Assembly: GCA_000002435.2 (NCBI GenBank)
Contig: CM018791.1
DNA from: Giardia intestinalis
Lineage: Eukaryota
Reading direction: 5' to 3' (one strand)
Length of the DNA: 64,000 nucleotides
A program made the translations under genes and the position numbers. The notes beneath the pieces were generated by a model. It worked only from the letters and a program-made list of their open reading frames with translations, searched no databases and was not told where the DNA came from. Position 1 is the stretch's first letter; each line of letters starts with the position of its first letter. Below are positions 18,401 to 64,000 of the stretch, in pieces.

Positions 18401-18518
18401 GGAGAAATTCGATTTTTCGATTTTGCAGGCCCGGGCCAGACCGCCACTCCCCACCCCGCAAACAGCCCCTTTGCAAGAAGGGATGGGGAGCACGTCTGCT
18501 GCTGTTTCTCCCCAGCGC

Positions 18519-18590
18519 GCCGGGATAGCTCAGTGGTAGAGCGTGGCACTCGTAATGCTAAGGTCGTGGGTTCAACTCCCGCTCTCGGCT
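18519..18590 (+). tRNA. tRNA-Thr (anticodon CGU).
   Basis: Manual cloverleaf: acceptor GCCGGGA/TCTCGGC (one G-U); D arm GCTC-AGTGGTA-GAGC; anticodon arm TGGCA-CTCGTAA-TGCTA with CGT at 18551-18553; 5-nt variable loop; T arm GTGGG-TTCAACT-CCCGC; discriminator T. No encoded CCA. Confidence 0.9.
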
Positions 18591-18596
18591 TTTACT
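18590..18596 (-). promoter_or_regulatory. Putative polyadenylation signal (AGTAAAA, an AGTRAAY-like element) for the RFC gene, overlapping its TGA stop.
   Basis: The minus strand reads TGAGTAAAAG directly at the RFC stop codon. The element is antisense to the last base of the tRNA-Thr(CGU) gene. Confidence 0.45.
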
Positions 18597-19561
18597 CACC
18601 CGCCCGCAGCGTGCCGGCACAGCGCCGCCGAGAGTCCCGCGACCTGGCTCTCGAGCGTCGCCCCGAGCGCGAGCGCCTCCTCCACGAGCGCAAGGGCCCG
18701 CACCGCCTCGGCCTTCCGCCGCGGCTCCACTTCCGAGGCCATCAGGGCCCGGAACACACACTGGACCACGTCCTCGGCTGAGCATCCCGCAGCCAGACAA
18801 CCCTGGATCTGGCCATACTTCTCCACGTACGGCATCGGTCGCAAGAGTTCCCGTCCCAGGGCAGGATGCGGCTTCGCCACAAGCTTATAGACGTCATCCG
18901 CCGTGGCGAGCTCCTTCTCTGTCATGAGGTGGAGGCTCTGGAGGACGTTGATGGCCTGGCGCAGGTCCCCGTCGGTAACCGCATGTATAGCGGCAAGGGC
19001 CCCTGGGGCCATCTGCATCCCCTCTGCATCTGCAATCTTCTCAAGCATAAGGAGGCAGGATTCGCGGGGCACAGGAAGAAAGCGGAACGCACAGCACCGG
19101 CTCAAGATGGCGGGAAGAAGCTTCTCTGGATAGTTGCACAAGAGACAAAAGCGCGCGTGCTTGATAGAGGTTTCCATCAAGCGGCGCAACGAGGCCTGTG
19201 CGACGCTCGACATGTGATCGCACTCGTCCATGATCACGATTTTGAACTTAGTTGCAGACGAAGACTGCTGGCTCAGGACGCTCCCACTTGTCACAAAGCC
19301 CTTTACTGTCTGTCGGATCACATCAACGCCAGAGTCATCTGACGCGTTGAGCTCGAGGACATGAGTACTGACGGCGTCCCCGAAGAGCTCATTCATCAGA
19401 GCCTTAATAAGAGTGGTCTTCCCAGTCCCTGGCTTTCCATAAAAGATCATGTGCGGAAGACGGCCCTCGCGGATGAGCGCACGGATGGCGGCGATAATCA
19501 GCTCGTGCGACACAACGCCCTCCGTCGTGGAGGGTCGGTACTTCTCAACCCAAGGAATCAT
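18596..19561 (-). CDS. Replication factor C small (40-kDa class) subunit, AAA+ clamp loader.
   Basis: N-terminal box WVEKYRP; Walker A GKPGTGKTT; DExD IVIMDECDHM; sensor SRC motif (ILSRCCAFRF). The 321-aa size fits RFC2-5. ATG at 19559-19561 behind tttaaaacagtaa. Confidence 0.9.
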   Translation of the reverse strand: MIPWVEKYRPSTTEGVVSHELIIAAIRALIREGRLPHMIFYGKPGTGKTTLIKALMNELFGDAVSTHVLELNASDDSGVDVIRQTVKGFVTSGSVLSQQSSSATKFKIVIMDECDHMSSVAQASLRRLMETSIKHARFCLLCNYPEKLLPAILSRCCAFRFLPVPRESCLLMLEKIADAEGMQMAPGALAAIHAVTDGDLRQAINVLQSLHLMTEKELATADDVYKLVAKPHPALGRELLRPMPYVEKYGQIQGCLAAGCSAEDVVQCVFRALMASEVEPRRKAEAVRALALVEEALALGATLESQVAGLSAALCRHAAGG

Positions 19562-38210: not shown

Positions 38211-38675
38211 CTAAATTTTTGTTATGCCGGCGGCAGGATTTGAGTGAAGGAGCTCAGCCGGTTGGCTTGGATGCGTTCTTTTGTATAACTCATCGCAGGG
38301 TCATACGGGGCAAGAACCTGTCATCACAGCTTTTAATTTAGTGCGATTCTGGAAGTCGGCAAAAAACGATATTAAATTGGAAATTCAAGTGAAATTTCAC
38401 GTCTGTCCTTTTGGATGATGGGCGTGAGAGACCCACTTTTCTATGTCTTCGTTGCATTCTGAACATTGCGAAGTGCCGTGTCCCGGGGAAGGTCTCGCCT
38501 CCTATTAGCTAGGGCAACCATCTGTGGTGTCCCTAGCATTCCCTGCTTGAGCTAGGGATCATCCAGTCGCTGCTTTGTCGCTCATTCTACCTATCACACG
38601 GACCTGATACTTTGAGATAGAGCGATCATCCTTGTCAGAGGCTGGTATACTGTTGTAGAGTAATCAGATTAATCT

Positions 38676-55700: not shown

Positions 55701-58399
55701 ACATATCGCGCATTGTTACTAATATGTTGACAGAGTCATCTATCGTCGTCAAAGCAACTAGTGTGCTCTCTGCAGTACAGAACTTTGTCACAGTTAGCAA
55801 AACGTCTGGAGCAGAGAGTCTTTCCGCTATATCGCAAGCCTACTCTAATATTCTCCGAGGAATCTCATGGCAGGTAGCTTCTCTAGAGGATGTTGTTACT
55901 CTTTCGAATGTTTTGCAAAATCTGATGGATCTCCTCCTTGACATTGTGCCCGATATGGCGAGGGCTTATATCAGCGCTGTGCTGGCGGGTGATTCCACTT
56001 TGTTTATTGCCGCGTTTCCAGTCGCACACAATCTTGCACCTATGCCAGTCCCCTTATCTGCTAGGAGGAGTATCTGGAACGATATCGAAACCAGGAGCCC
56101 AACACTCGCTCCTGGTCCTGGTGTCTCCAACTCAAATGCACAGTCCAATGGATGGGTCGTGGAAAGTGACTCCGATTCTGCTGATAACACACGTGCAGCG
56201 GACACTCAAAACTTGCAGCCACCACGAGCCCCGACAACAGGACAACCATCCCAGCCCCATCCAAAGACAGGCTGGGACTGTAATACCGATACCACCGATT
56301 ATAGTGCAGATCCAGATATCGCTGAGAACTGCTGGGCTGCCGACCTGACTGACACAGATTATGAGGCGTGGTCCTCTAACGACGATGTCCCGGAGTCAAA
56401 AGAAGTCACTGATCCACTCAGCGCCAGGGCACTTTATAACGTCTCACAGCAGGGCGCTCCTTCACTTGGCGGTTCCTCTTGCAGACAGGCATATATACCA
56501 ATAGACGCCATTGAAAGGTGTGCAGCAATGCTCAGGCAGGCTATTCGGCTGCGAAAGACAGCAAATCATTATGTACCTTTGACAAAGAATTATTCTCTGC
56601 ACTTATTCAAGGGACTCTTCACTTCCTTGGATGGCGGGATCCCGCCTACTGCACGCTTCGCTCTTCTGAACCTAGACCATGAGAGTGCCATCATGGTAGT
56701 GAAGGATTTCATTATAAATGCATTCGCAGGAGAAGAGGCGAGCCTAACAGTTCCACATCTTGTAAGCCAAGAGGCTAGAGCATTGATCTCTTCCCAGACT
56801 CGATGCGACCAGCACATACTGAGCTCTGTTGGAGTGTTTGCTGTGCTCAACACCTCCTTGATATTTCAGCACCTTTCAGAGTTCATTCTATCATCCTATG
56901 TCTTTTGCCATGGACTGCCTTCAGACCTGCCAATATTTCGTGAAGATACTATTGAGTTTTTAAGATGGGTGTCTGCTAATGCATTAGAAATGGGCCTTGA
57001 TGAGACTTGTGCCATCACCTACTATACAGTCACTATCATCGACAAAGAACCTGATCTGGCCCTCCCCTTAGCACACCTTTTTCTTCGTTATCTTAAGGTA
57101 TATTGCTCTGAAGAAGAAAAGCATACACTAGTTTCAGAAGCAGTGACGAAGCTGTCCTTGAAAGACTCTGCACTAGTTTCCTCGTGGTTAACAGTGTCTG
57201 CTTTGTGTCTTTCCTCCGCCCTTTCTAGAACCGATTCCTCAAATATTGCCAAACTGGCTGTGATTCAGAATCTAGTCTCTGGGGCAGCGGACATCAGTTC
57301 CGAGCATCGATTGGAAGAGGAGGCTACGCTTCAACTTCTCTCCAAGCTTCAGCGAATCCTTGCACAGCTTTCGCGTGAGTTTACCTTAAGCACGTTGGAC
57401 CGTCTTGCAAACATCACGGCGCATCTTACCAACCTGTCTGAGGACTATCTGAGTAGCAACCGTGAGGCAATACTTTTATACATCAAGGTGCGCTATACGA
57501 GCGATGCAACTATTCTAAAACACAAGCTCTTAGCACCAACCTACGAGATTGGCTCTGTCCCCATCTCGAATGTGGATATCACTTCTTGCTCTCCACCTTC
57601 ATGCGACACTTCCTCCAGTGATGACTATCTCCAGCGCTCTCTTGTCACAATCTCGACTATGTTCCCACTCTCTCCTTCTGTAACCTCGCAGTCTCAGGAT
57701 CCCCTTCTTGAGTTTTCATTACGAATGATTGCCTTAGAGTTAGTACGCTCCTCGGTACAGCTTCCTCTGGCTCACTACCTTCTTTTCTGGGAGGCTGCAG
57801 AGGCTCTACTATCAAAGCAGTGTAGCTCTTCGTCTTTCAAGAAGCTGCTTCCAAAACTGGAAGAGGACTCTAGCAATAGAGACAAGTTTTTACTTTTCTA
57901 CACTGCGTTCTACACCACAACTCTTTCCGACATAAATGAATATAGAGACCAGGTGCAGGACAGGCTTGAGCGTCTTTTGCAGCTCACGGCAATACTCTCC
58001 AAGCCAATGCTTAATCTCAAGACCCTGTGTGTCTCACTTGAGCCCAACCAATATCTAGAAAGCCCAGTGTCCCTGCCAATGGTATCCTTATTGGGAATAG
58101 GCGCCCGTGGAAGCGCCCTCCTCCAGAAGATGCAGGGGACTGAGTTTGCAGATACCATAAAGACACTAATGGCGATTAAAGAGGATGTTTACAAGCTAAA
58201 TCTGTACAAGCCAAGTGCACAGCTTGCTGGGGCTTTTCCTCCAGAGCTGGATGGAATATGCACAGGGCTTCTCGGGGTTTATGTTGGAATCTCTGACAAT
58301 GACGTAGAGGCTAGATTGGCAGAGAAGCTCGGCTTAAGCCTTACCAGCGACTTTCGGCCATTAGCCATTCTACGAAATATAGCATCAAAAGTTATTTAA
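46790..58399 (+). CDS. Giant hypothetical protein (3869 aa), predicted alpha-solenoid. No nucleotide-binding or kinase motif recognised.
   Basis: Single 11.6-kb ORF with ATG behind gattcaaaaaaggttgagaagaaacaagat. It is Leu/Ser-rich with many predicted helical repeats. There are no dynein-type P-loops, no PIKK/FATC tail and no chorein N-terminus. Confidence 0.9.
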   Translation: MSPVTTELWGRTVHYVSDAHTNHILSRSNGYEGHHHKPPASVRALLQDISGLPRYSNYLFLEGADSTATHGKVSSLTRLYVPIINRPYSVVGPTNVATDRLGITDASFFNETIRVSNSFGPRARGWKCASSPTSDVAICICPALTFRRYLKQKGRDTKSLLDYLKATSSDSLLCFNTTTMELTHSLPLASINNIGPCSDISPIPFEIAATYLYSFMDLAPASASNKSAGTFPPGTYAALLTCCDSRIYLVIVANYKLKYIQLFTVLQPVPNLFASSITALSVQLLSASNSNSEVPRLLLLASGPLALATPQPAIVGLLSGVKANTRPPPVVCAYTVHFAIDASSLPHVTTSVSLVASSFMDLLSVAIQKGKGSLAQIPTPLRVVKNGKGPEIILAGQYRLFLKPLYLRRNGPKTTQVAREIAESAVADVSGISVAASIDAKSITGSVTSNLVPYRAEMVRAFGRNLWYFRRSFEDASSCAKRSLLPDPRTLTVSARFLLIDWLLLIVYIIGLLAYGFYGILIKVLARTEKLTIKVNRRETRGSYAVPVCVHPLLFNRPGGAYHCLIFLSDESVIGAKTVTFLLDHCHNSAPDTGVKLLQLYLLDRSTLQLPKNTHITSLSTRPILLHNDFKTTICSEKPPEYVCPQLLYIKQDQPGDQSAKNRLLSEMPEELSSAIKCASSHLCESIGNFDYRKTHTLLDQATEQLAVKASSSYLYCSSVQRSSLNRTSSSVRSLHSTTVDSTFGALDASTGTTPLLYLCMFSYSSNVFQLNIYTVDNGISCCYSLPISLEAIESSLKNLDALPSFADTADYSELCQAGHLMEMASQTISLSSKEVSTSVVAFHDSCADDTGDSDVDQTPGKKLEAVVLNRSETCRLSRASRIRRSQMIERPLVICAGTCSRQTREDTVRGIGSYLIDYCDLADGPSKTAVSECQSPGNAAAHSPWRQPQSDSYRVLHLPTVRDDAALSFSFTGSVAKTKSVLLPHNPGLCGCTTIEVLFNTKQSSRIAELVSLALAERTVFKYRSGTAYPQAEMFSFKSGSSNDAKAPGANVKQAIDLMNRYIRNGKLLVQPHGDTLSTSASQRTLPKLDAPGSELALLSMLHTVATKDTSDFYQDFATDSSSVINCYALEVMITWFAKGPVVAFSILQKTSILDLVANYHQVLALLYCIVRRTCRFICDTFVLSYRRTVALHRFLSLVELMSVQVGLTRLLEACYKRSVLSILETISLSAVFNDEFLYEVEGLVKSQNTFAHYYDPHHVSDRTPFFVSYNSLLRYVRDFTGKDYSFPDSYEEPSLRKGSPEYIRHINATSLFVATGLLSDIVGHDTPCLPGFLIFYLHLYLCPQQYDDASDVNFAIHQRLKSKATLSATEVAKIATNAAIYRALSQFINMLITSKDIFISFDSFPDHLVSPSTSDVILLLKLWPLSRYMGYQTNSSSSLMRHLLTLNTATSILQNAKDLSEFKSKQSSPDIDEQHTRLQKAFEDSVAHASSFVCRELADSLICAAFSSPTYTALLRELSSKIETQAGAADHAVPLRPSIDAVDCWVDEDGDRDGDQVGCRQTYAQAVKLSCKSDEIILASPTLSAFLDRETVHLGSDSATLQKALIEQLEYSGRYIGFFTSLYYFIGYSFRFDDFLSTDQSLSFVSTPVLGRCTPVTTLLKTTVLEEDAHSQITNAIQLSTVIVKCLIPRIKRAIHEASEYTRAYISDLIDIRTKDGYVEGISILMRTVLNITELPLNDVSNKDMLKIAHVDASFRMYELFKQALEDSIVAKPLLESLREELKQKDMLVVLTTPALFAWKDFCSLSSSASIFTVLACFSLSDSLLPTTKSVVWLGHYYTSAFVTSLLSSMQPNGGNASIDLAELLQGPLPNAYLIGDEISGAIDAILLSCINSQVTDDIFQNTVLVTILHGVLQTPYAMQAIIAQYQYIKLMINTEHPSKSLLNKLLALLVGHTERYLFTSFENNPPALPPFYPLYTHCGLESHFSYDSFKPLVALLYMIALSEENVARLTHAEQKDLYSCLIDCILTPSVRRSSTMTERIESIASLHSMATSGIVLSPMSHLKLRVIQSTEKYTDVYRKMCSSFIFNNSSAGVSSELEEKIRSLLALTESGELFDGVDGPGILIEHALRSRAKEVLSILGIKFDMFSLILESLCYHLQETYNKEFGPYVAGDDREDLRAGAARLTNAESYKLISDVATFSYELLDSISLEGSTHASALLRKYAASSAFKGLAAQTLFFVDADILHTKVPLLLTSIKGVSSSFDSLNSDLSPEATKDLATALLGGDVIGRNIVSDWIDVYHMSFNYYWRHRNNALALTGNAYYPSCVSRILASSVCLLSTKTSSSTEQSSSFDYDSFLLYLLLTTAFFYVSVPASLNAVQSDVAFPKNSGIYEQLLYYSSTTPLPFVCNEPQTEGTTLTNVARNIISKGSQSSSLYSSIRDLRASRRHDLYSHRNRFVANMIKENSPNKSDVASACTLSTLMTCCYVSLFLEYVHRKQSTDGGSLPTPGDSIYRGLVSLVSTAPISNICDPKAPLHYMGIPIFLLAQLKLPFVDNFMIRLTRESWASEPIAAFLYLSLSNSERLVTGLFLSNSISYTQDLPGMTLLSFAVRLLGLEVARADIFRQPMTTDAVGRLLVNAYASQQSSKREVTSLLSLRDLSDDSQTEYFHGMPYHLFLLPAQVSWTEVTKAIKHAIAASTSIFPDSYSSDRLYCQTINRLSSYAGNTSCLLPKALSELADLASDPCWQDQHAQPTILSLLRDILSALLSICHGLLTPGIFYTTVAVILHAFGDGPSSVAGVSDLLKNLRAFSTDYLFLNYILRKYCSQSGESLEILLSLLSAFLSALSFSEDTRAAHRLADAFASNIVHGDPADHVYAQKIYSLYVLFAPPDKQCKTEFLLEALRRLPACRKSWFIPWFTNKAIVPALDLPHEQVREVVRLAYTRNILSDSDPSTSSNLLEFLDLSSTVDISRIVTNMLTESSIVVKATSVLSAVQNFVTVSKTSGAESLSAISQAYSNILRGISWQVASLEDVVTLSNVLQNLMDLLLDIVPDMARAYISAVLAGDSTLFIAAFPVAHNLAPMPVPLSARRSIWNDIETRSPTLAPGPGVSNSNAQSNGWVVESDSDSADNTRAADTQNLQPPRAPTTGQPSQPHPKTGWDCNTDTTDYSADPDIAENCWAADLTDTDYEAWSSNDDVPESKEVTDPLSARALYNVSQQGAPSLGGSSCRQAYIPIDAIERCAAMLRQAIRLRKTANHYVPLTKNYSLHLFKGLFTSLDGGIPPTARFALLNLDHESAIMVVKDFIINAFAGEEASLTVPHLVSQEARALISSQTRCDQHILSSVGVFAVLNTSLIFQHLSEFILSSYVFCHGLPSDLPIFREDTIEFLRWVSANALEMGLDETCAITYYTVTIIDKEPDLALPLAHLFLRYLKVYCSEEEKHTLVSEAVTKLSLKDSALVSSWLTVSALCLSSALSRTDSSNIAKLAVIQNLVSGAADISSEHRLEEEATLQLLSKLQRILAQLSREFTLSTLDRLANITAHLTNLSEDYLSSNREAILLYIKVRYTSDATILKHKLLAPTYEIGSVPISNVDITSCSPPSCDTSSSDDYLQRSLVTISTMFPLSPSVTSQSQDPLLEFSLRMIALELVRSSVQLPLAHYLLFWEAAEALLSKQCSSSSFKKLLPKLEEDSSNRDKFLLFYTAFYTTTLSDINEYRDQVQDRLERLLQLTAILSKPMLNLKTLCVSLEPNQYLESPVSLPMVSLLGIGARGSALLQKMQGTEFADTIKTLMAIKEDVYKLNLYKPSAQLAGAFPPELDGICTGLLGVYVGISDNDVEARLAEKLGLSLTSDFRPLAILRNIASKVI

Positions 58400-61341: not shown

Positions 61342-63654
61342 CTATGGGTTCTTGTCGCAGATGCACTTAGCAGACTCTAGGCGTGTTGTTGTTATGCTTC
61401 CGCAGCTAATGCTGGGAGTATTTAAGGCAGAGCTTACAGAACCCGAAGCCGCATCAACTTGTACCGTAAGAACTGTATCTGGCTTATTAGCCCCAGAGAC
61501 CGTTAATGTTGATGTGCTTCCAGCACCGTTCAAAGACACACTATTTGCACCTGCAGGGGAATCCTTTATAACAACGAAGGAGACAGTAATCTCCGAGGTA
61601 CCGGTTAAGGCAGAGATTGTCAGGTTCGTATCTTCTGTTGAATCCGATTGAATATGAGCGAAGTGATTAGGAGATGCATCTGCCTCTGCCGTGATGTTAA
61701 CGCCGCGCTCAGGAGCCAGAGGTGTAACCGTTACTGGACCGCCGGTAATAGAGAATGTATTTCCAGCTCCTCCAACGCTGAGAGTGGAAGTCGTAATGGT
61801 TTCTACCGTCAAGGTTCGATGAGCAATTGTATCGACCGTCATGGACTCTGTAAACACGAGTGTGTTTGCAGTCAGTTTAGAGTTGGAAAGAGACATCGTC
61901 TGAGCATGTATAACGGGTACGTCTAGTTTTTCTGCATTGAGGGTAGTTGCATTCAGCTGTGAACTAATCTCTAGGGTCGTAGCGTTGAGAGTGGCTCTCG
62001 CGCTGGCACTATTCTTAATAAGAGAGACGTTGAATGCAATGGTCACGGCCTTGATTGTGTCAAAGAATGCCCTAGTGACCGTTAGTGCAGAATTAGAAAG
62101 AGTTGTGCCGCTGTTCAATGACTCCAATTGAGTGTCAACGGTCGTCACGTTAATAGAACTACTTCTCTGCTCTAAAAAGCTAGGCGTGATTAGCGAATAC
62201 GTTGTTGGTGCACCTGCTTGTCCTGTAGGTGGTGCTTGTAAAATCGCAGGGTCAGACCAGTTGCTGTACCCCACCAGAGCTTTATTTGTCACTGTCAGAT
62301 TGGCAACCTTTAGGTCAACTAGCTTGATGTAAAGGACAACAATCAATATTATCAATATTATAGTTAATAGGAAAAGAATAATGATGATTATGTAAATCAA
62401 GAGGTGTTCACGCATGACGCTCAGGCACCCGCCGTGTCTCTGCTCCTTCATAATGGTTCTAGATTCATAAAGGGTCGACTCCTCATTAATCAGCACGCGA
62501 GACTCGGCGGTGTAGACAGCATCGTCTATTGATTCAATATGGGAAACAGCTGAAGACTCTGCGCTCGAGATCTCTATAAGCGGGCCCGTACGTCTTACTG
62601 GTACTACTTTAGCTACTGTGATGGCTGGCAGCGGTTCTTGTGACTGCCCTGTGCTCTCCGAGGGCGGTTGATATGTCTCCTGGTTTTGCGGGATTGCATT
62701 AATCGTCTCAACAGGCAATGGAAAAGTTGTAGTAGAGAACCTCTGAAACTGTTCCCTAATAGTTGGATGCAAAATAGCCCCGTCGAAGTAGAAGACGAAG
62801 CGGGGCGCCCCGAAGGAGGCGGCCTCGCGGGCGGCGGCGGGGCGCTCGAGGTACGCCTGGACCTTCCGGTAGCGGAGGTACGTGAGCTCGGCGGCGCGGC
62901 TCCCGGGCTGGGCGCGGAGCTCGGCGGCCGGGGGCGCGTAGAGGACGAAGCGGCGGTCCCGGACGAGGTCGCTCCGGCCCTGGGCGAAGGCGGGGTTGAC
63001 GAAGACCGAGAGCGCGTGGCCGGCGCGGGCGCGGGTGACGACGGCCCCGAGGAAGAGGTCGCCGGGGAGCCGGAGGGGGACGGGGCCCGCGAAGCCCAGG
63101 GGGACGGCGACGGCGCGGAGGAGGGGCGGCCGGGCGAGCGGGAGGGCGTCTGGGCGGGTGCAGCTCTCGCAGCGGAGGCCGACCCGCCGGGCCCCTGCGG
63201 CGAGGGCCTCTCCGGGCGCGAGGACGGCGCTCGCCCCGGGCTGGGAGGGCGCGCCGCACGCGGGGCAGGGCCCGGGGAGCCCGAAGAGCGCGGCGCAGAC
63301 GGGGGCCGGGAGGGAGCGGACGAGCGCCGGGAGCGCCCCGGGGTCTGGGAGCGGCCCGAGCTGCGCGGCAAGAGGCCCCAGGTCGAGCGTCCCCGCCCCG
63401 GCGAGCGCGGCGCGGAGGAGCCCGGCCCAGAGCTGCGGGGCGTCTCCGGCGGGCGGGGGGCCGTCGAGGAGGGCCTCGAGCCGCCCGAGGACGAGCGCCT
63501 GGTGGACGACGCGGAGGAACGCGCCTGCGAGGCCCTCGGGGTCGCCGGCGAGGACGAACGAGGGCGCGGCTGCCGCGGGCGGGCGTCCGTCCCCCGCCGC
63601 CGTGGGCCGGGGCGCCGGGTCGAAGAGGCCCGAGGGCTGCGGCGCAGACGTCAT
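61342..63654 (-). CDS. Composition-chimeric ORF. The 80-87% GC Ala/Pro/Gly/Arg-rich N-terminal region of about 286 aa (with a CxxC...CxxC zinc-ribbon-like motif) is followed by a normal-GC linker, a TM helix and a 330-aa Thr/Ser/Asn-rich ectodomain.
   Basis: Continuous frame from the ATG at 63652-63654 to the stop at 61342. The frame crosses the GC boundary (about 62797) smoothly (..FGAPRFVFYFDGAILHPTIREQF..) and stays open for about 113 normal-GC codons before the TM helix LLIYIIIIILFLLTIILIILIVVLYI. Alternative internal starts exist at 62451 and 62415. Confidence 0.55.
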   Translation of the reverse strand: MTSAPQPSGLFDPAPRPTAAGDGRPPAAAAPSFVLAGDPEGLAGAFLRVVHQALVLGRLEALLDGPPPAGDAPQLWAGLLRAALAGAGTLDLGPLAAQLGPLPDPGALPALVRSLPAPVCAALFGLPGPCPACGAPSQPGASAVLAPGEALAAGARRVGLRCESCTRPDALPLARPPLLRAVAVPLGFAGPVPLRLPGDLFLGAVVTRARAGHALSVFVNPAFAQGRSDLVRDRRFVLYAPPAAELRAQPGSRAAELTYLRYRKVQAYLERPAAAREAASFGAPRFVFYFDGAILHPTIREQFQRFSTTTFPLPVETINAIPQNQETYQPPSESTGQSQEPLPAITVAKVVPVRRTGPLIEISSAESSAVSHIESIDDAVYTAESRVLINEESTLYESRTIMKEQRHGGCLSVMREHLLIYIIIIILFLLTIILIILIVVLYIKLVDLKVANLTVTNKALVGYSNWSDPAILQAPPTGQAGAPTTYSLITPSFLEQRSSSINVTTVDTQLESLNSGTTLSNSALTVTRAFFDTIKAVTIAFNVSLIKNSASARATLNATTLEISSQLNATTLNAEKLDVPVIHAQTMSLSNSKLTANTLVFTESMTVDTIAHRTLTVETITTSTLSVGGAGNTFSITGGPVTVTPLAPERGVNITAEADASPNHFAHIQSDSTEDTNLTISALTGTSEITVSFVVIKDSPAGANSVSLNGAGSTSTLTVSGANKPDTVLTVQVDAASGSVSSALNTPSISCGSITTTRLESAKCICDKNP

Positions 63655-63664
63655 TTTGGGCGGC

Positions 63665-63669
63665 AAAAA
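63665..63669 (-). terminator. Pol III oligo-T terminator (T5) immediately after tRNA-Thr(AGU).
   Basis: Minus strand reads ...attcggcTCTTTTTGccgcccaaaATG. The T5 run begins 2 nt after the tRNA discriminator base. Confidence 0.55.
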
Positions 63670-63670
63670 G

Positions 63671-63744
63671 AGCCGAATACGGTGCTCGAAACCGTGACCT
63701 CGACATTACTAGTGTCGCGCTCTAGCCAACTGAGCTAATTCGGC
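63671..63744 (-). tRNA. tRNA-Thr (anticodon AGU).
   Basis: Manual cloverleaf on the minus strand: acceptor GCCGAAT/ATTCGGC (7 Watson-Crick pairs); D arm GCTC-AGTTGGCTA-GAGC; anticodon arm CGACA-CTAGTAA-TGTCG with anticodon AGT; variable loop AGGTC; T arm ACGGT-TTCGAGC-ACCGT; discriminator T. Confidence 0.9.
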
Positions 63745-63799
63745 ACGGGCACCCCCCAACGCCTGAAATGGCTATTGTCTTTTTCCTGAGGGGACCGCA

Positions 63800-63806
63800 G
63801 TTTACT
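63800..63806 (-). promoter_or_regulatory. Polyadenylation signal AGTAAAC (AGTRAAY) overlapping the TGA stop of the PDI-like gene.
   Basis: Minus strand reads GACAAGGAGCTCTGAGTAAACtgcgg. Confidence 0.5.
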
Positions 63807-64000
63807 CAGAGCTCCTTGTCCCCATCGGGGCGAACCACCCGGCCGTCCTTCCCGAGCGGGACGCCTGTGAGCTGCCGCGTCTTGTGCTTCTTGAGGAACT
63901 CGATGATAGAGCCCACCGGGTCCTCTCCAAAGTCTGCCTGGAAGACCTGCTTCTTAGGGCTGGCGTTATCATAGATGACAATCTTAGGGCCAGCAGAGGA
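63806..64000 (-). CDS. 3' end of a thioredoxin-fold / protein-disulfide-isomerase-like gene (5'-partial, continues beyond the window), ending in -DKEL.
   Basis: The minus frame that is open to the window edge encodes ..KIVIYDNASPKKQVFQADFGEDPVGSIIEFLKKHKTRQLTGVPLGKDGRVVRPDGDKEL*. The V-I-Y-D/N-G ... FxxFLKKH pattern resembles the C-terminal thioredoxin domain of PDIs, and the terminal KEL resembles a K/HDEL ER-retrieval signal. The reverse-strand ORF 63768..63974 looks spurious. Confidence 0.45.
   Translation of the reverse strand, partial: SSAGPKIVIYDNASPKKQVFQADFGEDPVGSIIEFLKKHKTRQLTGVPLGKDGRVVRPDGDKEL

Follow-up and report, generated by a model that had tools for sequence, protein, structure and literature searches.

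In Giardia, RNA polymerase II (Pol II) promoters consist of two degenerate AT-rich elements, with transcription starting in the proximal one and the second lying about 20-35 nt upstream (Teodorovic et al. 2007, PMC1885649). Intergenic regions are extremely short, typically 30-177 bp, and a 30-bp example has been described with an untranslated region (UTR) of ~3 nt (PMC1885649). Transcription start site sequencing (TSS-seq) gave an AT-rich consensus at -5 to +5 of the start site and mostly short UTRs (Tolba et al. 2013, PMC3792122). Overall, 5′ UTRs are mostly <20 nt and initiation takes place within an AT-rich initiator (PMC1885649, PMC3792122). Here we analysed a 64,000-nt stretch of the Giardia intestinalis contig CM018791.1 (assembly GCA_000002435.2), referred to as the window, in which a tRNA-Thr(AGU) gene ends 16 nt before the start codon of the open reading frame (ORF) GL50803_0028832 on the same strand, the 5′ third of this ORF being a GC-rich tract. 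A match to the Giardia snoRNA GlsR5 (122.8 bits) and the 100% identity of the ORF to its database entry identify the window as assemblage A (WB).

The tract can be compared with a second group of described systems, those shaped by gene conversion. Giardia genes in conversion events between AI and AII are reported to be GC-enriched, with a median of 0.54 (PMC12669663), and GC-biased gene conversion (gBGC) has been proposed for ribosomal DNA (rDNA; Escobar et al. 2011, as cited in PMC10123126) and for the 75% GC rDNA of Giardia (PMC10123126). Taken as a whole, an account in which two independent transcription units meet at an ancient junction, while the GC-rich tract is a conversion tract with a probable GC bias, appears likely to us.

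The tRNA gene and the start codon of GL50803_0028832

The tRNA-Thr(AGU) gene occupies positions 63671-63744 on the minus strand and folds into a canonical cloverleaf. In a scan of the whole window, the Rfam model RF00005 matched it over its full length with every pair standard and a score of 62.2 bits (E 4e-11), well over the gathering score of 29, and ARAGORN called the same gene as Thr(agt) at 63670-63744 (-), one base longer than the Rfam match. A run of five thymines, T5 (63665-63669, -), follows 2-6 nt past the tRNA 3′ end and is the presumed RNA polymerase III (Pol III) terminator. The 16-nt spacer between the end of the tRNA and the ATG, CTTTTTGCCGCCCAAA (63655-63670, -), reads 5′ to 3′ from the discriminator T (63671) through C (63670), TTTTT (63669-63665), GCCGCCC and AAA (63657-63655) to the ATG (63654-63652), with the AAA forming an initiator-like A-run directly 5′ of the start codon (63655-63657, -). 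Rfam, ARAGORN and the sequence itself thus confirmed what the initial annotation had described, a tRNA-Thr(AGU) gene with a T5 terminator ending 16 nt before ATG 63654.

The A box of the tRNA gene, TAGCTCAGTTGG, fits the general consensus, from which the needs of Giardia Pol III may differ. In the B-box region, GGTTTCGAG, the pair T53-A61 replaces G53-C61, which is nearly universal in tRNA T stems.

The ORF itself extends over 61342-63654 (-) and encodes 770 residues, with a 100% match to the database protein GL50803_0028832, and the GC-richness noted in the initial annotation is real, with 80-84% GC in 200-nt windows over the tract. Its product comprises a USP-like domain, a linker, one transmembrane (TM) helix (~62329-62406) and a T/S/N-rich C-terminal region ending in CxC. 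Apart from the start codon (63652-63654, -), no frame of its strand holds an ATG over 870 nt, the next in-frame ATG being codon 402. Residues 1-294 (62773-63654, -) form an N-terminal domain with a confidently predicted USP-like fold and two CxxC pairs, supported by the family alignment.

An exhaustive HMMER search with residues 1-294 returned nine relatives; P0013, for instance, aligned over query residues 6-292 (E 4e-43). Two of them, P0016 and P0017, come from G. muris (GCA_006247105.1), and every relative whose source could be traced is from Giardia. They share a common architecture of an N-domain with two CxxC pairs, a linker, a TM helix and a T/S/N-rich tail, with the exceptions of P0020, a 105-aa fragment, and P0021, which carries this architecture after a long N-terminal extension. 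Most relatives are of ordinary composition, and an (M/L)F(D/E) motif brings their N-termini into register with this ATG.

Codon usage followed the annotated frame. The GC content at the three codon positions (GC1/2/3) was 0.86/0.63/0.96 in the tract and 0.47/0.48/0.45 in the remaining ORF, and in assemblages A2, E and B the frame of the tract was preserved, with changes that are synonymous. The position of the sole ATG in 870 nt, the aligned N-termini of the family, the confident USP-like fold and the codon periodicity together argue that ATG 63654 is the genuine start and that the GC-rich part is coding.

All six frames are open across the 83% GC tract. An extension of the ORF through it as a mechanical artefact was rejected on the basis of the codon periodicity, the in-frame conservation, the family homology and the confident fold.

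Conservation of the junction across lineages

WB, DH, P15 and a Logan contig, L015, all show the same gene order: PDI4 is followed by the tRNA, a spacer of 14-18 nt, the ATG and the beginning of the GC tract. WB (AI) and DH (AII) have the same 16-nt spacer, CTTTTTGCCGCCCAAA, and the same first codons, ATGACGTCTGCGCCGCAGCCC. In P15 (assemblage E, contig ACVC01000106), the spacer is 14 nt long, TTTTCGCGCTCAAA, and is followed by the same first codons, ATGACGTCTGCGCCGCAGCCC, while L015 has a spacer of 18 nt, ATTTTCCCTACTCTTAAA, and the first codons ATGACAGCAGTACCACAGCCC. The PDI4 of L015 shares 82% identity with that of A and equally with that of E, corresponding to a B-like distance. The juxtaposition of the tRNA and the ATG is therefore older than the split of A, E and the B-distance lineage.

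The tRNA-Thr(AGU) sequence is the same in DH and P15 and carries two substitutions in L015. The T-run right after the tRNA takes the form T+TTTT in P15 and ATTTT in L015, such that all four lineages have an oligo-T within a few nucleotides of the tRNA 3′ end. Across the four spacers, only this T-run and an A-rich context before the ATG, (C/T)xAAA-ATG, are conserved, the latter reading CAAAATG or TTAAAATG. In sequence, the T-run is consistent with a Pol III terminator and the A-rich context with a Giardia initiator.

The 61-nt 5′ flank of the tRNA (63745-63805, -), between the PDI4 stop codon and the tRNA, showed a very different pattern in the comparison of isolates. WB and DH differ at 9 of its 61 positions (14.8%), against 1.0-1.4% in the neighbouring coding sequence and none in the tRNA and spacer, and no usable alignment was obtained with P15 or L015. 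Such a hypervariable flank resembles the mutation excess that is seen next to active tRNA genes. Together with the identity of the tRNA between A and E, it gives an indirect hint that tRNA-Thr(AGU) is active.

The T53-A61 pair in the T stem (63681-63693, -) is kept in DH, P15 and L015. The PDI4 gene (protein disulfide isomerase) is represented in the window by its 3′ end only (63806-64000, -; ...DGDKEL, stop TGA 63808-63806), being cut by the window edge. The DH ortholog (L003 2797-3861) carries Thioredoxin Pfam matches, and the names in its cluster include the 'PDI4' of WB and P15. The intergenic space between PDI4 and GL50803_0028832 amounts to 151 nt and holds the 74-nt tRNA.

Transcription of GL50803_0028832

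We consider it most likely that the junction holds two independent units placed back to back, a Pol III tRNA gene and a minimal AT-rich Pol II initiator located in the spacer. Pol III would transcribe tRNA-Thr(AGU) from the internal A and B boxes, presumably stopping at T5. For GL50803_0028832, the most likely place for transcription to begin is the spacer, either immediately before the A-run or within it, which would leave a 5′ UTR of ~1-15 nt. Any promoter element further upstream would then have to be formed by the 3′ half of the tRNA together with the T-run, with T5 perhaps serving as an AT-rich element of the Pol II promoter. This reading draws on the conserved sequence and on the published behaviour of Giardia promoters. 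Of the possibilities raised in the initial annotation, a loose or cryptic promoter overlapping the tRNA is the best supported, on the strength of the conserved A-rich context, the T-run and the short UTRs of Giardia (PMC1885649, PMC3792122).

The spacer resembles the described Giardia promoters in several respects: the A-run abuts the ATG, a second A/T patch (T5) lies ~10-15 nt upstream, and the space is tiny, comparable to the 30-bp region mentioned above, in which the promoter necessarily overlaps the upstream gene. It departs from them in that the upstream gene is a Pol III tRNA gene and not a protein gene, and in that the -10 to -1 region is only 30% AT, with GCCGCCC parting the two A/T patches; the start, moreover, is one that we infer. 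The only A/T patches upstream of the ATG are T5, at -11 to -15, and short ones in the tRNA (GTATTC and GGTTTCGA). T5 is thereby off the published spacing of the second element of about -30 (PMC1885649).

Several points weigh against a minimal initiator in the spacer. The AT fraction over -10 to -1 of the GL50803_0028832 ATG is 0.3, as compared with 0.4-0.9 for other genes in the window, which places this region among the least AT-rich. Pol III factors bound to the tRNA could hinder a Pol II complex, and the promoter may consequently be weak. Furthermore, no transcription start, expression or protein evidence for GL50803_0028832 was found in the literature searched, and neither the text nor the supplements of the TSS-seq paper mention the gene (PMC3792122).

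Alternatively, expression of the ORF could depend on the Pol III unit or on a precursor common to both genes, through read-through of T5 or through RNase P/Z cleavage, at the tRNA, of a Pol II transcript from further upstream, leaving an mRNA that starts at the tRNA 3′ end. The two units are only 16 nt apart, and there is no sense-strand T4 between 63665 and 62774 (the next one after T5 on the strand of the ORF being 62774-62771), so that a polymerase passing T5 would cross the whole GC tract. An mRNA that included the anticodon loop would also present the ATG at 63706, which is out of frame, so that the 5′ end of a productive mRNA has to fall between 63703 and 63655. Such transcripts would, on the other hand, be without a cap; all four lineages have kept the T4-T5 run after the tRNA, which agrees with its being a functional terminator, and the conserved A-rich ATG context fits a normal initiator. 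No report of a tRNA-mRNA dicistron in Giardia was found in the literature searched on tRNA and Pol III. We therefore regard a shared transcript as highly improbable, and Pol III read-through, which the initial annotation had proposed, received no support.

The junction offers a clean test case for the functioning of a Pol II initiator at a distance of 10 nt from a Pol III terminator, in a place where the tRNA gene occupies the usual position of the upstream promoter element.

The anticodon-loop ATG (63704-63706, -) opens a 316-codon out-of-frame ORF across the GC tract, and in any mRNA with its 5′ end before this point it would act as a strong upstream ATG.

A GC-rich tract shared by two loci

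Composition and comparison of copies delimit a GC-rich tract from codon 6 (CAGCCCTCGGGC...) to ...GACGGGGCTATTTTGCA, at 62768-63639 (-). Its GC content is 83%, and it differs from the remaining ORF both in GC3 (0.96 vs 0.45) and in overall GC (0.81-0.83 vs 0.47). In 200-nt windows, GC reaches 80-84% over about 62800-63650, compared to a mean of 0.489 (sd 0.057) for the stretch as a whole. The level is flat at about 80-85% across the tract, with no decay away from the tRNA, and falls off at a cliff at ~62777, close to where the homology with the paralogs ends (~62768). The protein composition follows: Gly, Ala, Arg and Pro make up 0.54 of the domain in WB, against 0.22-0.27 in the ordinary-GC paralogs and 0.21 in the flanking part.

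The same GC-rich module was found in a second gene, located beside CTP synthase and very different in its remainder, in GS (assemblage B, P0003), P15 (P0022) and G. muris (P0017). Identity between this second locus and WB is 86% over the module and 42% over the whole local alignment, with most matches in the module. Homology among all copies starts at codon 6 (CAGCCCTCGGGC) and ends at ~62777 in B and ~62768 in E, 9 nt apart.

Within a lineage, the two loci are nearly identical over the tract. The two P15 loci agree at 157 of 158 nt, P15-specific changes included, and after ...GACGGGGCGATCTTGCA the identity drops at once to 54 of 150 columns. For assemblage B, eight sites have B-specific states common to locus 1 and to GS locus 2, while zero sites group by locus, and the tract of the only full-length assemblage B contig, the metagenome contig L013, shows 2 differences from the GS locus-2 tract in ~440 nt. 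Divergence between orthologs is also reduced over the tract. WB and DH differ at 0.23% of nucleotides in the tract and 1.3% in the rest of the ORF; between A and B, nucleotide identity is 90% in the tract and 72-73% in the rest of the gene, 4-fold sites differ at 16.8% and 45.6%, respectively, and protein identity is 88% in the domain and 68% in the rest. Because the within-lineage copies at two loci are closer to each other than cross-lineage orthologs are, these data indicate that repeated interlocus gene conversion homogenises the tract at the two loci, the sequence evidence for this coming from assemblages E and B.

This would also account for the shape of the GC-rich block. Conversion would extend only as far as the homology between paralogs, and this homology starts just inside the coding sequence, which itself starts 16 nt past the tRNA. 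The sharp cliff and the apparent beginning of the block at the tRNA follow from the tract edges being the limits of paralog homology, namely codon 6 and the end of the domain. The initial annotation had treated ~62790-63654 as a segment of its own, with a possible break at 62797. The block is indeed distinct and a real break exists at its far end, but it is better described as a conversion tract, its 5′ edge lies at codon 6 and not at the tRNA, and the break is displaced to the cliff at ~62777 and the end of paralog homology at ~62768.

The repeat formed by the tract likewise explains why this ORF has been modelled with 357, 369, 475, 770 and 774 residues. It also explains why contigs of three draft assemblies, three from P15 and others from BAH15c1 and GS, end inside the tract. 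The DH gene model begins at a TTG only 4 nt past the tRNA. Contigs L001, L002, L004, L008, L014 and L015, which belong to P15, BAH15c1, GS and, in one case, Logan, end inside or at the edge of the tract, and a look-up of the Logan fragment P0009 gave C-terminal pieces only.

Three observations weigh against the conversion account. The breaks in draft contigs could also come from a loss of sequencing coverage at high GC. No locus-2 ortholog of WB or DH was present in the protein database, where a search with P0003 gave only the P15 protein and its own gene. Finally, L013 joins a 386-nt AT-rich, tRNA-less 5′ flank to the tract and a locus-1 3′ part, and its first codons encode MAAAA, compared to MT(S/A)(A/V)P at locus 1. 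From its sequence, we take L013 to be a chimera that arose when the repeat was assembled, or else to carry the locus-2 flank; it could alternatively represent a true B arrangement or a recombinant.

Upstream of the tract, L013 (1-1800) contains a divergent 466-aa ORF, for which no homolog was detectable in the fetched loci or in the flank of G. muris locus 2. JGI metagenomes scanned with a 45-nt core of the tract yielded 0 matches.

Origin of the tract composition

GC-biased repair during these conversions would have driven the tract to 83% GC and to a Gly/Ala/Arg/Pro content of 54%. We consider GC-biased conversion to be probably the most economical explanation of the composition. It builds on an unpolarised substitution spectrum and on composition, since G. 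muris and the ordinary-GC paralogs are too divergent to act as outgroups. The N-domain of the G. muris locus-2 ortholog (P0017) is intermediate, with 65% GC vs 47% in the rest of the gene.

The tract shares several features with concerted evolution under gBGC, as described for rDNA (PMC10123126) and for the AI-AII conversion events of Giardia (PMC12669663): copies group by lineage, the tract edges are sharp, GC and especially GC3 are strongly above the flanks, and the amino acids are dragged toward G/C-rich codons. In contrast to these systems, we are dealing with a two-locus, single-domain tract of ~870 nt in otherwise divergent single-copy genes. Its 83% GC also stands far from the median of 0.54 of the AI-AII conversion genes (PMC12669663), and a repair bias in Giardia is something that we infer.

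A GC3 of 0.96 resembles actinobacterial coding sequence, and the A-B protein conservation is higher in the domain (88%) than in the rest (68%), which could suggest a horizontally acquired high-GC domain, or else a selected GC-rich mRNA structure with the similarity between copies due to purifying selection alone. The nine HMMER relatives, however, are the only ones that the exhaustive search returned; those that could be traced are all from Giardia, the others have the same architecture, and none looks like a high-GC donor, while the G. muris ortholog is intermediate in GC. Purifying selection leaves unexplained both the lineage-specific synonymous changes present at the two loci and the within-lineage near-identity at 4-fold sites, and the shift toward Gly, Ala, Arg and Pro alters the protein itself. 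Foreign origin or selection is accordingly very unlikely in our view. Under the conversion account, the tract is a case in which interlocus conversion, still ongoing and probably GC-biased, can be delimited sharply in the sequence of an organism with a debated capacity for recombination.

P0017 and P0016 lie ~8 kb apart on G. muris CM016926.1 (L007 and L012; ~1.236-1.259 Mb). Of these two members, only P0017, beside CTP synthase, has a GC-elevated N-domain (65% vs 53%). Their gene context is a different one and the fetched stretches are without a tRNA, which makes synteny uninformative here.

The tRNA gene and the edges of the tract

Could the tRNA gene itself have given rise to the tract? As a replication fork barrier or recombination focus, it might cause breaks that are repaired from the paralog, with GC-biased repair of its 3′ flank. 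The window contains one other tRNA gene, tRNA-Thr(CGU) (18519-18590, +; ARAGORN, Rfam), and the sole two stretches of at least 70% GC (in 200-nt windows over the 64 kb), 18507-18842 and 62735-63737, both start 3′ of a tRNA-Thr gene, whereas 0.70 GC is reached by only 0.2% of the other 200-nt windows. The last ~60 codons of the RFC gene beside tRNA-Thr(CGU), which the first of these stretches covers, have a GC3 of 0.93, and the 5′ flank of tRNA-Thr(AGU) is hypervariable. These are two cases only, however, and GC3 is high throughout RFC and PDI4. In the tract, GC is flat instead of decaying from the tRNA, and it ends together with the paralog homology. Moreover, the tract is also joined to the tRNA-less AT-rich flank of L013, the locus of this flank not being certain, and the G. 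muris locus-2 ortholog reaches 65% GC with no tRNA within 3 kb upstream. A tRNA-driven tract is thus unlikely.

The flat GC, the coincidence of the edges with the limits of homology, the tRNA-less copy of the tract and the GC-elevated, tRNA-less G. muris ortholog argue instead that the tRNA is a bystander to the GC tract. A wider role of Giardia tRNA genes as foci of recombination or repair, with breaks at a highly transcribed tRNA-Thr(AGU) and with the smaller peak at 18507-18842 reflecting the same effect in the absence of a paralog to copy, is equally doubtful. If true, tRNA genes would be landmarks of recombination in a eukaryote that is presumed to be asexual.

Transfer RNA genes are also known as integration targets: bacterial tyrosine integrases use attachment sites in tRNA 3′ ends, and Ty3 and the Dictyostelium TRE elements insert near Pol III genes. 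The initial annotation had offered the tRNA as the attachment point, or boundary, of an integrated or transposed segment at 62790-63654. As in such systems, no more than a few bases separate the tRNA 3′ end from a block of foreign-looking composition, the GC-rich block starting 7 nt past the tRNA terminator, ending at a sharp cliff and being present at more than one locus. We searched the window for the direct repeat of the tRNA 3′ end that had been suggested for the far boundary (~62790) and found none anywhere: a 23-nt probe (up to 3 mismatches) and a 13-nt probe (up to 2) matched the tRNA only, and a repeat scan of the window showed no such family.

The content of the block does not resemble an integrated element either. 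It encodes no integrase, recombinase or reverse transcriptase, consisting of one in-frame domain homologous over its full length to ordinary-GC paralogs; the GC-rich 5′ third of the ORF is, by sequence and family alignment, best taken as the family's own N-terminal domain and not as inserted DNA. A, E and the B-distance lineage have all kept the tRNA-ATG junction, with no presence/absence polymorphism there, the homology between copies starts at codon 6 and not at the tRNA, and the 5′ flank of the other copy is without a tRNA, as is the 3 kb examined beside the G. muris locus-2 ortholog. Unlike tRNA-targeted elements, the block is thus native and paralog-homologous, with neither a duplicated tRNA 3′ end nor an integrase or reverse transcriptase. 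Since it failed at the repeat, at the conserved junction and at the identity of the domain, that is, at each check run, integration at the tRNA is extremely improbable.

The USP-like domain

The N-terminal domain has a USP fold in the predicted structure. The invariant columns of the family alignment contain neither an N-terminal Cys nor a His that could be catalytic, and the expected position of the USP Cys box, which we placed from the fold and not with a tool, reads GDxxGLVxxFFR, with no Cys. A Pfam scan of the domain gave no matches, UCH included. Given that the family has no conserved catalytic Cys or His and that Pfam detects nothing, the domain is probably a catalytically dead, USP-like pseudoenzyme. 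It differs from the pseudo-deubiquitinase USP domains, such as the UCH-like domain of PAN2 and Sad1/USP39, in having no sequence-level match to Pfam UCH, in its fusion with a TM helix and a T/S/N-rich tail, and in belonging to a family detected only in Giardia-type sequences. For this Giardia-specific family of membrane proteins, the N-terminal domain can thereby be assigned a USP-like fold.

Gene packing in the window

Tight spacing of the kind seen between the tRNA and the ATG is ordinary for this genome. Eight of the 25 gaps between large ORFs in the window are ≤27 nt, and intergenic distances from -15 to 30 nt occur frequently, with examples such as a 15-nt convergent overlap and divergent ATG pairs 7 and 12 nt apart. 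The stop codon of GL50803_0028832 is followed by the next ATG after 26 nt, and paralogs of this gene have their ATGs 18 and 24 nt past upstream stop codons. The other tRNA gene, tRNA-Thr(CGU), has its 3′ end 5 nt from the stop codon of the convergent RFC ORF (18596-19561, -). The overlap of a promoter with a neighbouring gene, which the initial annotation had deduced for this ORF, is therefore routine in the window. By itself, the packing of tRNA and ATG changes nothing, and adds one more example of small promoter space in Giardia.

The 15-nt convergent overlap (58385-58399) involves a 3869-codon ORF (+) and a coiled-coil ORF (-) of 976-993 codons, and the GTG-extended form of the latter also runs over the end of the GC-tract ORF (61342-61366). 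A near-perfect copy of the C/D-box snoRNA GlsR5 (38250-38338, -; 122.8 bits) lies inside an 811-nt gap between ORFs.

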